A stretch of 64,000 nt of DNA from Carpediemonas membranifera BICM (GCA_019828565.1 JAHDYR010000045.1:1-64000), one strand, 5' to 3'; counted from the first letter of the stretch, positions 352-35,335 are shown. The notes: generated by a model not told the origin, from the letters alone. A program made the numbers and translations.

Positions 352-1410
352 TTATTCATTGTCCTCGTCAGCAGCCAGACGCTTCTCGCCCTCCGTAATC
401 AATGCCTTTCTTATGACCGGATCCTTATCATCGGGACGTTCGGGTAAGCCGAACACGCGGCGAAGGAGGTTGCGATTATCAGCTGTCTGCAAGCTGGTGA
501 TAAACTTGTTGACTGTCGGGAGCATATCCTGCCTCTCTGGTGCATCCTCATCAAGCTTCCGGAATGTCAGGGCGAAAGAGATGCATTTCTGCGCGTGAGT
601 GATTTTCAGCGGCACAGCCTCATGAGAGAGCATCTGGCAGAACTCGGTTGGGTACAGAATGATATACTCAAATATATCACGCTGTTTGTCCAGCGACCGC
701 TCTTTCTTTCCTGACATCTCCGCCATACGTGTCATCATGTGCTTGATTCCACCGCTAGGTCGAGAGCTGAGGGCACCAGGCTTCTTCAGTTCCACTCGCA
801 GTGCGTCTGCCTGATGCTCAAGCTGAGCGGCGGAACAATCACTGCCTGCCATCTTGTAAATCGCCAGATGATACGCGATATACACTTGCCACATGGTCTG
901 TGGACCCGAGTTAACAGTCAAAATGGACTGGAGTGCATGAAGCTGCTCCACCGTCGGGTGCTCAGCTGCGTCCAGGGAGACGATGGTCCAATCATCAGAC
1001 TGTTCGTTCGACCTGTCAATCGAACCACTCCAGGTCTTGGACAAGATCGTGTCAACATCATAGCACGACAAGTCATTCTTCCGCTTGTGATGCTTTGCGG
1101 CGGCGTCTTGGTCAGCGGGAAGGACAGTCTGGCCAGCGGGTGAGCCATCGCCTTGGACAGCGGGAGGGCCATCGCCTTGGACAGCGGGAGGGCCATCGCC
1201 TTGGCCAGCGGGAGGGCCCTCGCCTTGGCCGGTGGGACGCTGATCAGTGGCGAAATGAAGACGAGCGTCATCGTCAGAGGCGTTCAAAGCACGTGAAGCG
1301 CTGATGGCGTCCATGAGAACTATTTTGAACTCCTTCTTGAACGTCTGCGTCCGCTTGTTCTTAGGAATGGCGTAAAGCATTGCCATAAGCTCTGAAGTGT
1401 CGAAATCCAT
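352..1410 (-). CDS. Hypothetical protein, cluster family A (paralog of 23509..24354)
   Basis: 352-aa ORF. QTMWQVYIAYHLAIYKM and FEYIILYPTEFCQML align by eye with NIAWVAYQMELYNEL and VRYMILFPNLFWDLL of 23509..24354. Confidence 0.7.
   Translation of the reverse strand: MDFDTSELMAMLYAIPKNKRTQTFKKEFKIVLMDAISASRALNASDDDARLHFATDQRPTGQGEGPPAGQGDGPPAVQGDGPPAVQGDGSPAGQTVLPADQDAAAKHHKRKNDLSCYDVDTILSKTWSGSIDRSNEQSDDWTIVSLDAAEHPTVEQLHALQSILTVNSGPQTMWQVYIAYHLAIYKMAGSDCSAAQLEHQADALRVELKKPGALSSRPSGGIKHMMTRMAEMSGKKERSLDKQRDIFEYIILYPTEFCQMLSHEAVPLKITHAQKCISFALTFRKLDEDAPERQDMLPTVNKFITSLQTADNRNLLRRVFGLPERPDDKDPVIRKALITEGEKRLAADEDNE
1130..1237. repeat. 24-bp coding tandem repeat, about 4.5 units
   Basis: Unit ggccatcgccttgg(a/c)cagcgggag encodes QGDGPPAV/QGEGPPAG on the minus strand. 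Confidence 0.9.
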
Positions 1411-1439
1411 CGAAATGTTCTCGTGCAGATTTTGTCAGA

Positions 1440-2108
1440 ATGCGACTGACCACGAAGGAGACGTATACGATGCCAAGTGATGACTATTGTCGTCTCTACA
1501 GCAGCAAGATCTTTACTGAGTTCAGTACCGATTGTTCTGCGTTTGGCTTTTCGAGATCGATGCTTGCTAACAAGTGTGACATCAACGTGGACGAGAACGG
1601 CTTCAGTACTGCAGTTTCCGTCACTCAAGAAGAGCAATACTCCCTTATGGGAACTTCCGTTGGCAATGGGGTCATGGTGATGTCCCCAATCGAGAAAGGC
1701 ACCATCATCGGAGTGTACCGTGGTGAGATCGTCTCGACGCCGGGCCCCACAGCGGATTCGACCTATGTCATGTCCTTCTCGCAGAAGCTTGAGTATCACG
1801 TCGACTCCAGCGGTCTTCAGTATGGCTGTCACCTTATCAACGACGGCATGGGCTTCTACAACTGTGATGCCCACACGTATCTCGTCTCCGTCATGGTGGA
1901 TGACAAAGCCGTGAAACTGCCAATCCTCGTCATTGCGGCTACAGCCGATATCAAGCCGATGGAGTTCCTCTCCATTGAATACGGCGATGACTACTGGCGC
2001 GGTAAGAAGCGTGTTACTCTCTTCCCCTTCTCCATGGGTCGTATGTGCTCTGCAACGACTAGCCGTGAAGAGATGGAGGCTGTCGTTGACAATGTGCTCG
2101 GTTTATAA
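1440..2108 (+). CDS. Stand-alone SET-domain protein (putative lysine methyltransferase)
   Basis: SET motifs GVMVMSPIEKGTIIGVYRGEI, HLINDG..YN and ATADIKPMEFLSIEYGDDYW (ELxxxYG pseudoknot motif). Confidence 0.85.
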   Translation: MRLTTKETYTMPSDDYCRLYSSKIFTEFSTDCSAFGFSRSMLANKCDINVDENGFSTAVSVTQEEQYSLMGTSVGNGVMVMSPIEKGTIIGVYRGEIVSTPGPTADSTYVMSFSQKLEYHVDSSGLQYGCHLINDGMGFYNCDAHTYLVSVMVDDKAVKLPILVIAATADIKPMEFLSIEYGDDYWRGKKRVTLFPFSMGRMCSATTSREEMEAVVDNVLGL

Positions 2109-2117
2109 ACGCTCCTT

Positions 2118-2596
2118 GTTGTACGCGAATGAGGCGACGTCACCACTCCCTACAACGGCGCCAGGATGTGGTCAAGGGGGAATTTGCACTGAGTCACGTC
2201 GAACTCTCCATGGCACTCTCCCCCGTGCGCCACCCCTGATCACTACGTCTGGACCACTATTCTTCCACGGCGTTCTCTCCCTGGCGTTCTCATAGGCAAT
2301 CTTCTTCTTGCCTTCCTGATGTTGATATTAATTGTTTCTGTGTACACAAGCTTGCTAATGTCATTATAAGCTTCACGTAGTACTAAATCGTCTTGTATTC
2401 CCGGTATTATCGTCCATATGGCTGAGCATGAATAATGATGTTGATTACAAAGGAGGGAGAAGCTGGTAGTGGCTCTAGAGCAGACAACGTTCAATGTGCA
2501 GCACGCATAGAACAACAATCCCCTGAATATTACTGTAACTGATCATTCCACGGATTTCGTTTGCGACAGCGATCGCAAAATTGTGCACTTTACGGC
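2118..2596 (+). repeat. 479-bp direct repeat, copy 1
   Basis: Matches 4168..4646 with one mismatch seen (2492 c vs 4542 a). Confidence 0.95.
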
Positions 2597-33155: not shown

Positions 33156-33548
33156 ATGTACATATGAATATCGAGACCTTTACAGTTTTAGTCTCTTTTC
33201 TGCGAGATAGAAGCGAAAGAGAAGCACCTCTGCCTTCAGCCTCAGGATTCCGTTCTTCTCAGCCCTAGCTATCTCAGAATGAGACGAATTCAGCTTCGAC
33301 ACAAACTCAGCTGCTGAGCTTGCGTCTGGCAAACCACTATCCGTCTGCTTCGCGATCTCGACGTCAGTGTTCCAGTTATCAACTGACATCAAGGCACGGA
33401 GGTCGGAAGTACTCATCTCTAGCTTCTCAGCGAGATGATCAATGGCTTTCTTGCGAAGCTTTCCTTTCCTCTCCCCATCCTCTCCCCCCATTCCTTCGTC
33501 GTCTCCTTCGATTCTCGTTGCCAACGCGCATACTCTTCATAAAAAACT

Positions 33549-33928
33549 ATGATTACGACGAAATGAGAGAAATGTTCCCGAACGGGTTCCCCGGCAAGAA
33601 AAAGCCGAAGGAGGAGACGCCCTCGACTCCCGAACTTGATGATAAGTTCGAGGAGCTCGAGAAGCGCCTTGTGGAGCGCCTTGAGGAGCGCTTTCGGGCG
33701 TTCGAAGTCCCAAGCACTCAGTGCTTGTACGAGCCCAGTCCTGTGTTCTCCTCGTGCTATCAGTCATATGGCCCTGGCGGTAAGCAAGCTTACCAGGAGC
33801 GTGTCCTCACCGCGTTCAAGCAATTTTGCCTTGATCATGGCGAGGGCCGCTCCGAGCTCACCGTGCTCGAGGCCCTAAACGCATCTAAGTCGTCCCTGGC
33901 TCGGGCTACTGACAGAAGATATAAATAA
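33549..33928 (+). CDS. Hypothetical protein
   Basis: GC3-biased open frame ending in TAAA; the start codon is uncertain. Confidence 0.4.
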
Positions 33929-34295
33929 AGTCTGGTTTATACCTCAGTCACAGTAACTGAAGTCACTTCAGTCGTATCTCCCGTGTACTCCGTCATGAGC
34001 TCTTGGTGGTTCAGTCGGCGGCTGTTGATGGTCAGCGGGGGATGCGTCAGCACCAGGAGCATGTACATGATGCACAGGAAGATGTTGACGTCAGGGAACG
34101 ACCAGGCCGAGTTCAGGGAATTGTGGAACCACCGACGGGGGACAGTGGGAAGGCGGATGACCTCCCAGGAAGGTTGTCGTCTGCAACGGAAGGATCTGTT
34201 GTCACGCAAAGCTGGCTGGGGCGGGGGTAGTCAGGCGATGCATACGGGATGTCGTCCTTGATGAGCTCAATCAGCCACGGGGTGCCTCGGGTGCT

Positions 34296-35335
34296 TTGGC
34301 CCTTAGCCTTGACGAGGGGGATCTTGGCGAAATTTCACAGACACGCGTGTACTTTGAGTTTAAGTGCCGTACAAGTACCAGCTCCGTCTCTTCTGCCGTC
34401 GTCATGCACGACGTCCACCCGACCGCTCGAGACGCTCGCGCCGAGGCCCTCCAAGCTATCTGGCCGGCCACCAACGCCGATTGGTCCACTGACTCGTCGC
34501 GCTGGACGGGCCTTCTTGAGCTGGTCAAGGCCGAGCCCGACCTTAACACGCTTCCTCGCGGCCTGGAGGTCTTCTCCACTTCCTGCCTCCCCGCGCCCAA
34601 CCCAGTTGTCGCCCGTCCCCCCGAGACCCAGCCCGGCCTCGAGCAGCTCGAGCCGGAGTTGACTCAGCGCGTCAACATGGACGTCATCCGTGCGCTTCAC
34701 CGCGACTTCCCCGATCTGCTGGATCGGGATGTCACCTCCCCCGATGCCTTCCGCCGCGCGTTCGGCATCCCCGCTTCGCTATGCATCGTCTGCGGTAAGC
34801 GGGTGCTGAAGGGGTTCAGCAGCACGCAGTCGCCTCTGCCCACTATCGCCGGATCAAGAAAGTCAGGATCCCGACGGGCACGCGATATGTCATCAGGTGC
34901 ACGAACGTCCACGCGCAAGTTGACCAAGTCAACCCACGGTCCGCCGCGCGAGGTCGTGCTCACCAAGCACGCCGACCTCAGCTGGGTGTTGGACGCGCCA
35001 TGTATGACGTCCTCTGGATGGTCCAGAACACGTTGCGTCTGGAGGACTACCTCTCTCCCCGTTCTGTGCGTGAGCAGGGTACGCTGCGCCACCTCGGCTT
35101 CACCGCCTCTCCTCTGCTGGCGGTCATCCTGCACCTGGGCTCTCGCTGGAGCCACCAGATGTTCTCGGTTGAGGAGTCCGAGCGCATGGCCGAGGAGATG
35201 GAGGCTGACCTCCAGGCGTCGGCTACCTCCGATCCTTCATCCCGAACTTCAGCGACGTTGCCTACCACATCCAGGAGCTCGCTAACGGCGAGAAGGTTGA
35301 GCAAGACAAGCTCGACACCGCCGCCGCCAAGCTGA
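34296..35335 (+). pseudogene. Frameshifted hypothetical CxxCG protein
   Basis: GC3-biased coding with CIVCGKRV; the coding frame changes at ~34810 and again before 35000. Confidence 0.45.

Follow-up and report, generated by a model that had tools for sequence, protein, structure and literature searches.

Dispersed multi-gene chromatin modules in Carpediemonas membranifera, putative cargo of a mobile element

Two copies of a chromatin-gene module

We analyzed a 64,000-nucleotide stretch of DNA (GCA_019828565.1 JAHDYR010000045.1:1-64000; hereafter the window), part of a 74,679-bp contig of the metamonad Carpediemonas membranifera BICM. An original prediction, made from the sequence alone, described positions 352-35335 as a repeated cassette of chromatin genes carried by a DNA transposon or an endogenous virus. 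All of the open reading frames (ORFs) that it named were recovered at the positions given. The following features belong to the two gene sets or accompany them.

352-1410, minus strand: family A, copy A1, 352 aa, internal 24-bp repeat; second copy J8273_6723
1440-2108, plus strand: SET1, an intact SET domain standing alone, from a divergent clade with the motif GxHxxND (Pfam and PDB)
2118-2600: direct repeat R, copy 1, 483 bp, 99.6% identical to copy 2
2618-3406, plus strand: family B, copy B1, 262 aa; copies J8273_6725 and J8273_8710
3666-3856, minus strand: 5' stub of a HEPN gene (13 codons) with upstream DNA, 86% identical to 26817-26627
4027-4191, minus strand: C-terminal PIWI/Argonaute fragment, last ~55 codons
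4168-4650: direct repeat R, copy 2
4820-6400, minus strand: OTU-like protein, 526 aa, acidic stretch, C-terminal Cys/His motif
23509-24354, plus strand: family A, copy A2, 281 aa; second copy J8273_8430
24404-25389, minus strand: family B, copy B2, split between two frames at an A8 run (24992-24999)
25812-26518, plus strand: SET2, with a probable 32-nt GT-AG intron (26223-26254)
26779-27651, plus strand: HEPN-like protein, RNSICH (RxxxxH) motif, C-terminal Cys motif
28672-29125, plus strand: histone H3 variant, two frames, break near 28837
30002-30271, plus strand: GNAT acetyltransferase-like relic, one internal stop
30302-30376, minus strand: possible third SET scrap, N-terminal strand only

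The claim of two diverged gene sets held gene by gene. In shuffle tests, A1 and A2 are homologous with a z-score of 4.6 (2/1000 shuffles), B1 and B2 with 6.8 for the 3' piece (0/1000) and 5.9 for the 5' piece (0/100), and SET2 matches SET1 with 14 and 17 for its two pieces (0/1000 each); the HEPN stub completes the correspondence. Set 1 reads A1(-), SET1(+), B1(+), HEPN stub(-), PIWI piece(-), OTU(-), whereas set 2 reads A2(+), B2(-), SET2(+), HEPN(+), so that neither gene order nor orientation is the same. Between them lie DNA of a circular Rep-encoding single-stranded (CRESS) virus and of a long interspersed nuclear element (LINE). Thus, although the gene sets recur, the 35-kb span is a nest of insertions and not one repeated cassette: it holds two rearranged, partly broken module copies parted by later CRESS-virus and LINE insertions. 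Pfam searches of 30 and 106 ORFs identified no housekeeping genes in 352-35335, in agreement with the original prediction, which had however passed over the CRESS-virus replication protein (Rep) and the LINE reverse transcriptase and endonuclease.

The two copies of repeat R bracket the stretch from B1 to the PIWI piece. Part of repeat R is homologous to DNA lying between B2 and SET2 (about 25250-25750 in the alignment), which gives the PIWI piece the position held by SET2 in the other set; set 1 resembles a tandem unit that has been rearranged. The PIWI fragment itself was confirmed (Pfam E-value 1.4e-3; PIWI in PDB, 3e-5). It was likely captured from the host because its G+C content at third codon positions (GC3), 0.93, is far above the 0.52-0.70 of most module genes.

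The SET call was borne out by SET1, which scores 24.7 bits against a Pfam SET cut-off of 22.4 and aligns to EHMT2 in PDB (E-value 2e-4). A full-length SET2 copy on its own gave no Pfam match. The annotated copy J8273_7657 equals both SET2 pieces of the window with 1 difference in 224 aa. Its junction fits removal of the 32-nt GT-AG stretch, and two other SET2 copies read through the same 32 nt. SET2 is probably intact and intron-bearing; we rejected a frameshifted pseudogene, as the intron fits better. At most one 25-residue strand survives of the third SET relic that had been proposed (independent E-value 0.05 among 1284 pieces), and the plus-strand ORFs at 30555 and 30329 were rejected as its source (z-scores about 0).

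The remaining module proteins vary in how well they can be assigned. The HEPN-like protein keeps its RxxxxH motif, with RNSICH in 9/9 copies that include the domain (two further copies are 5'-truncated), whereas its match to Pfam HEPN_Swt1 is weak (E-value 4e-4, 21 bits) and falls under the cut-off of 27.5. The predicted OTU protease takes its label from the UniRef name of a 99%-identical relative (J8273_6726), and PDGSC and EHAAVY, fitting a DGSC...H motif, are visible in the sequence, but we obtained no Pfam, PDB, PHROG or credible NCBIfam match. A 54-codon ORF (6671-6510, minus strand) may be the true start of this gene. The H3 variant stands firmly as predicted (Pfam Histone, E-value 9e-17), with both halves matching H3 in PDB; K4 and K9 are kept, Phe occupies the position of K27, and loop L1 carries a 7-residue insert. 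The GNAT-like relic, absent from the original prediction, matches Acetyltransf_7 below the Pfam cut-off (E-values 0.013 and 0.025) and has no PDB match; codon usage favors the frame.

An Atlas search returned fungal DUF6532 as a look-alike of A2 at 0.88, which we treat as a lead only, and for B1 nothing better than leads below 0.9. The original prediction placed chromodomains in family B, and the C-terminal tail of B1 does resemble one by eye; the B1 copy J8273_6725 is without this tail. Every profile test failed. No Pfam match was found at an E-value up to 10, where two gypsy chromodomains in the window matched at about 1e-7. The family had no chromodomain match in PDB, and hhalign of the tail against three chromodomains gave a probability of 0.3%. 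These results weigh against a chromatin reader in the modules, and no profile test backs the further claim that the element reads its own mark. AlphaFold models of the family reached a predicted local distance difference test score of 37.6 and 48.2, on shallow alignments of 4 and 2 rows, too low to inform on the fold. Both tails do carry aromatic residues spaced much as in a chromodomain cage (Y..KW..Y in B1, Y..KW..TW in B2), a post hoc pattern that missed the true gypsy chromodomains. We keep the idea of a highly diverged chromodomain, and with it a role as mark reader, at about even chances, because the aromatics are visible in both tails and P0043, a member of the SET clade described below, is fused to a weak chromodomain (E-value 0.002).

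Between gypsy pieces at 61251-62334 we also observed an orphan 245-aa ORF whose tail is chromodomain-like by eye, without a Pfam match. The DNA upstream of it is 84% identical over 88 bp to 28525-28612, just upstream of the H3 variant. An ORF at 61597 was rejected as a third family B member (z-scores -0.2 and 3.4; hhalign 2.6%).

The SET clade and the dispersal of the modules

The SET genes of the window belong to a clade found at 17 loci in C. membranifera, with 8 protein types, the window's two included. A profile search of 1.84 billion representatives returned 63 matches, the best nine of which are C. membranifera proteins. The best PDB matches of the clade profile are G9a/GLP (EHMT2/EHMT1), with an E-value of 3e-9 to EHMT1. 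In a quick tree of 62 rows, the C. membranifera SETs and ten further proteins form an 18-row group with a Shimodaira-Hasegawa-like likelihood ratio (SH-aLRT) support of 94; because every row was retrieved with the query profile, the clade is to some extent selected. The motif GxHxxN[DHGE] occurs in 17/62 rows, 16 of them within this 18-row group. Other members of the clade (P0036, P0037, P0038, and P0042) suggest related elements in other organisms. In C. membranifera, the clade SET J8273_7215 lies 10-13 locus tags from H4 and H3 genes (J8273_7225, J8273_7228) on the histone list of the genome paper, and some histones on that list may be element cargo.

Across 15 rows of the clade, G77, G91, G95, and N134 are invariant, and Y93 and Y181 are present in at least 90%. 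The GxG and YxG motifs and the catalytic Tyr of the ELxxDY motif are present and align to EHMT2. Enzymes that write a methyl mark, as had been claimed, are plausible given that residues predicted to bind S-adenosylmethionine (SAM) and to catalyze transfer are kept across so diverged a clade. Two features weigh against this role. Motif III is non-canonical, reading GxHxxND in place of RFINHS with the Asn kept, and the clade has no post-SET cysteines and thus no post-SET zinc site; activity and histone substrate are therefore uncertain.

The subfamilies are 21-38% identical in 27/28 pairs (75% in the remaining pair), while two of the protein types are letter-identical at 3 loci each, which indicates recent copying. 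Old divergence with conserved catalysis, combined with recent dispersed copying, would be the pattern of a mobile family under selection.

The modules occur as near-identical, dispersed, multi-gene copies in which SET is linked with HEPN, A, B, and OTU. Eleven HEPN genes, spread over 9 contigs, form one cluster and share 96.6-98.9% identity with the window copy. A clade SET lies within 4 accession numbers of 9/11 HEPN genes (for 3/9 the shared contig is inferred from number order), against about 2/100 random genes expected by our arithmetic on 8,300 genes; the two without one are J8273_8656 and 7640. SET2 adjoins HEPN at four loci (the window, J8273_1474/1475, 8735/8736, and 7656/7657). The order A1-SET1-B1-OTU is repeated on a 175,664-bp contig (J8273_6723, KAG9391994, 6725, 6726), with HEPN 6721 two tags off, so the SET genes do show the recurring synteny with families A and B that the original prediction proposed to look for. 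HEPN, SET1, and B1 are KAG9390013, 15, and 17 on a 905,863-bp contig. SET1 thus has two further copies (KAG9390015 and KAG9391994), and one relative is 98% identical. The synteny of copies outside the window rests on accession and locus-tag order. Every named cluster member comes from C. membranifera, the named relatives being 95-99% identical. Several genes are broken in the window copy, which weighs against the cargo model, and many module copies are truncated; the assembly was built with nanopore reads, and some of the breaks may therefore be errors.

The genes are multicopy, near-identical and dispersed, and they show no single-copy host synteny of the kind that the original prediction named as grounds for abandoning it. 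Together with the recurring gene order, this supports mobile cargo, and the module genes are very probably carried by a mobile element of some kind. Segmental or subtelomeric duplication could instead have multiplied a host gene family that lacks a transposase, in parts of the genome rich in repeats. That many copies sit on small contigs (46-176 kb), that an intron is present and no mobilizing gene is seen, and that the region also holds tandem host-gene duplications (Arf1) would all fit. Such spread would not readily explain why three different SET subfamilies adjoin one near-identical HEPN gene, why gene order is shuffled, with a captured PIWI piece in place of a SET gene, or why no housekeeping genes are co-duplicated in the span, and we regard it as quite improbable.

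Later insertions and candidate mobilizers

The rest of the span contains the following.

8037-10886: endogenous CRESS-DNA virus, a separate insertion, with an Arg-rich capsid-like start (8236-8037, minus strand), a 487-aa ORF (8245-9708, minus strand), an origin-like stem-loop (9826-9916), and Rep (9999-10886, plus strand)
12538-22900 (approximate limits), plus strand: LINE-type retroelement(s), a separate insertion (Pfam RVT_1 and endonuclease)
27613-27984, minus strand: 123-aa ORF, no family match
30998-31465, plus strand: CxxCG ORF
31741-32586, plus strand: CxxCG ORF, GC3 0.83, undefined start
34404-35335, plus strand: CxxCG ORF, two frames, high GC3, abutting a Ty3/gypsy pol relic at 35336

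The LINE region has a strong A-skew and a repeated 3' part (16390-16690 and 22515-22817), and a 626-aa ORF upstream in it is without a family match. The predicted CxxCG group stands to the extent that the motif occurs in 4 ORFs against 0 in 40 shuffles; the pattern was devised after viewing the ORFs. Host-type genes start at 37572 (DUF229, a nucleotidyl transferase, two Arf1, a Myb-like factor, and RabGAP), with Ty3/gypsy elements among them. The gypsy elements lie at 35336-37000, 40415-44229, 55390-60416, and 62377-63999, two with Pfam-confirmed chromodomains, and candidate long terminal repeat pairs are at 39605/44255 and 50576/54655. A tandem duplication of 1245 bp (45567-48332, 99.9% identical) carries two identical Arf1 genes. 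Rfam returned 0 matches.

As the original prediction had noted, Pfam detects no transposase, type B DNA polymerase (PolB) or capsid for the modules within the window. We also examined whether the CRESS-virus Rep might be a rolling-circle mobilizer of the modules, since an intact ORF joining an HUH endonuclease and a helicase lies within the span (Pfam Gemini_AL1, E-value 6e-10; RNA_helicase, 1e-8). This is highly improbable. The insert has its own origin-like stem-loop and capsid-like ORF, and its Rep has 32 related viral loci at 32-55% identity and no relative at 90% in the collection searched. The 487-aa ORF matched none of those 32 loci. The genome paper reports only four geminivirus-like Reps in C. 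membranifera (PMC8516963), against at least 17 SET loci; the Rep of the window probably belongs to these four.

The other half of the original prediction, an endogenous virus, found no support. We considered a DNA virus of Polinton-like, mirusvirus or giant-virus type whose remnants would include the histone, OTU, and stand-alone SET genes. The ORFs are small, dense, and in shuffled order, and the SET domains lack both pre-SET and post-SET parts. SET, histone, and OTU-type genes do occur in large DNA viruses. The window nevertheless has no match to a viral capsid, PolB or packaging ATPase for the modules, and the intron that SET2 likely contains would be spliceosomal. Searching IMG/VR with SET1 and OTU gave nothing, and the clade alignment gave 3 loci at 27% without the clade motif. 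The accessible part of the Bellas 2023 screen names C. membranifera only among the genomes screened. We consider a viral origin distinctly unlikely.

We tentatively assign the modules, at a little less than even chances, to the cargo of a large rolling-circle DNA transposon family of the Helitron/Helentron type. Thomas et al. (2014; PMC4067079) report that Helentrons carry SET, OTU, and histone genes, whole or in fragments, and that they pick up pieces of host genes. The C. membranifera genome paper reports helicase-endonucleases related to those of Helitrons, which were not expressed in culture (PMC8516963). Just upstream of the OTU gene, within 6679-6935, are three arms of a 16-23 bp inverted repeat (6686-6701, 6878-6893, and 6913-6928; 4 matches against 0.5 expected, 0/100 shuffles; fold z-score -2.7). 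The triplet, which lies directly upstream of the 54-codon ORF at 6671-6510, is laid out like the end of a DINE-1/HINE element, with a subterminal inverted repeat and a nested inverted repeat. The nested arm is 19 nt away, and PMC4067079 gives a spacing of 3-22 bp. The SET gene J8273_5083 lies 13 locus tags from the Pif1-like J8273_5070, one of a Pif1-like pair, a weak association (about 0.1 by chance, shared contig assumed).

Several observations count against a Helentron-type carrier. Outside the CRESS-virus and retroelement ORFs, Pfam searches of 30, 106, and 124 window ORFs found no Rep/helicase, DDE transposase or recombinase. The 123-aa ORF at 27613, considered as a recombinase N-terminal domain, was rejected for want of a match. 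The arms of the inverted repeat continue for about 30 bp, the loop of the putative 3' hairpin is unusually long, and the repeat at 6679-6935 could equally be a ~270-bp miniature inverted-repeat transposable element (MITE) with no relation to the modules. The window shows no excess of Helitron1-type 3' ends (3 sites, against 0-4 in 10 shuffles), and no HEPN copy has any of the 4 listed Pif1-like genes nearby. HarbingerS and MuDR elements are reported to carry SET genes as well (PMC12730594), and cargo therefore does not fix the class of element.

The modules might accordingly belong to another large DNA transposon with the same chromatin role, whether a DDE element (Harbinger, MuDR, KDZ or Plavaka) or one with a tyrosine recombinase. 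The SET-bearing HarbingerS and MuDR of Phytophthora described in PMC12730594 offer a precedent, the inverted repeat at 6679-6935 could be a terminal inverted repeat (TIR), and the fungal DUF6532 look-alike of A2 is a lead in this direction. With no transposase match in the window, and no long TIR pair or target-site duplication bounding either set, we think this unlikely. A metagenome scan using HEPN as the query turned up no related element, and one using the SET clade gave one generic SET at 25%. We found no description of this element in the open-access literature, Repbase and subscription papers lying outside the search.

Proposed role and comparison with known systems

If the modules are cargo of a Helentron-type or other mobile element, the SET enzymes are predicted to methylate histone lysines and would thereby keep the chromatin of the element usable, or permissive, against host silencing. 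The variant H3 would alter the nucleosomes on the element, with the OTU-like protein acting as a further eraser and the GNAT-like protein as a further writer. The HEPN protein could be an RNase acting on silencing RNAs, or an addiction toxin. A mark-reading role for family B would depend on its tail being a highly diverged chromodomain. Transposition, the histone substrate, the anti-silencing role, and the other functional steps are all inferred from sequence. E(z) is reported to be absent from the metamonads surveyed in bioRxiv 10.1101/2021.07.16.452543, so the missing K27 does not have to signal evasion of Polycomb; this tells against a simple account of that kind.

A bolder reading would see an undescribed giant eukaryotic element with a whole chromatin kit, an RNase, and a PIWI piece, which builds a private chromatin unreadable to host silencing. 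The kit would comprise several SET writers of the new clade, a diverged chromodomain reader, a K27-less H3 with a long L1 loop, an acetyltransferase, and a deubiquitinase. Taken jointly, this is doubtful. SET-bearing DNA transposons, and transposons with a single epigenetic enzyme, are already known. In the open-access literature we did not find a multi-paralogue SET clade, linkage with HEPN or a variant H3 in a metamonad, and the cargo is unusually rich.

If the mobile reading is true, a metamonad noted for its reduced DNA-processing machinery would host recently copied modules with a fuller counter-silencing kit: many diverged SETs, a variant histone, and a gene resembling an RNase. Among the Carpediemonas proteins annotated as 'H3K9 methyltransferases' or as divergent H3 variants, some may then belong to mobile elements and not to host chromatin. 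SET1, SET2, and HEPN are predicted to be small intact enzymes and are open to testing.

Known systems resemble the modules in part. The SET clade aligns with the G9a/GLP SET domains at GxG, YxG, and the final Tyr, but is without the pre-SET and post-SET zinc clusters and has an altered motif III, and this match does not tell which lysine is the target. Chlorovirus vSET is likewise a small stand-alone SET ending in a YG..YW motif; the clade profile has 33 PDB hits at an E-value up to 0.01, of which vSET is not one, and we found no viral context for the modules. HarbingerS and the SET-bearing MuDR of Phytophthora, the TET/JBP-bearing fungal transposons, and VANDAL are DNA transposons with an epigenetic enzyme and a proposed anti-silencing role (cited in PMC12730594). 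They differ in that they have one accessory enzyme per element, and no DDE transposase is found in the window. EpiLTRs and DAM-carrying retrotransposons place a writer and a chromodomain reader on one mobile element (bioRxiv 10.64898/2026.05.21.726589). These are retroelements with DNA methyltransferases, whereas the modules have predicted protein methyltransferases, no reverse transcriptase, and at most a putative reader. Helentrons, including proto-Helentron-Pi, differ in that no Rep/helicase was located in the modules of the window. The modules in turn have several SET paralogues of a distinct clade, HEPN, a GNAT-like gene, families A and B, and a metamonad host. Helentrons, as described by Thomas et al. 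(2014), and the modules are alike in their SET, OTU or OTU-like, and histone cargo, in the likely capture of host fragments, and possibly in a subterminal inverted repeat with a nested inverted repeat.

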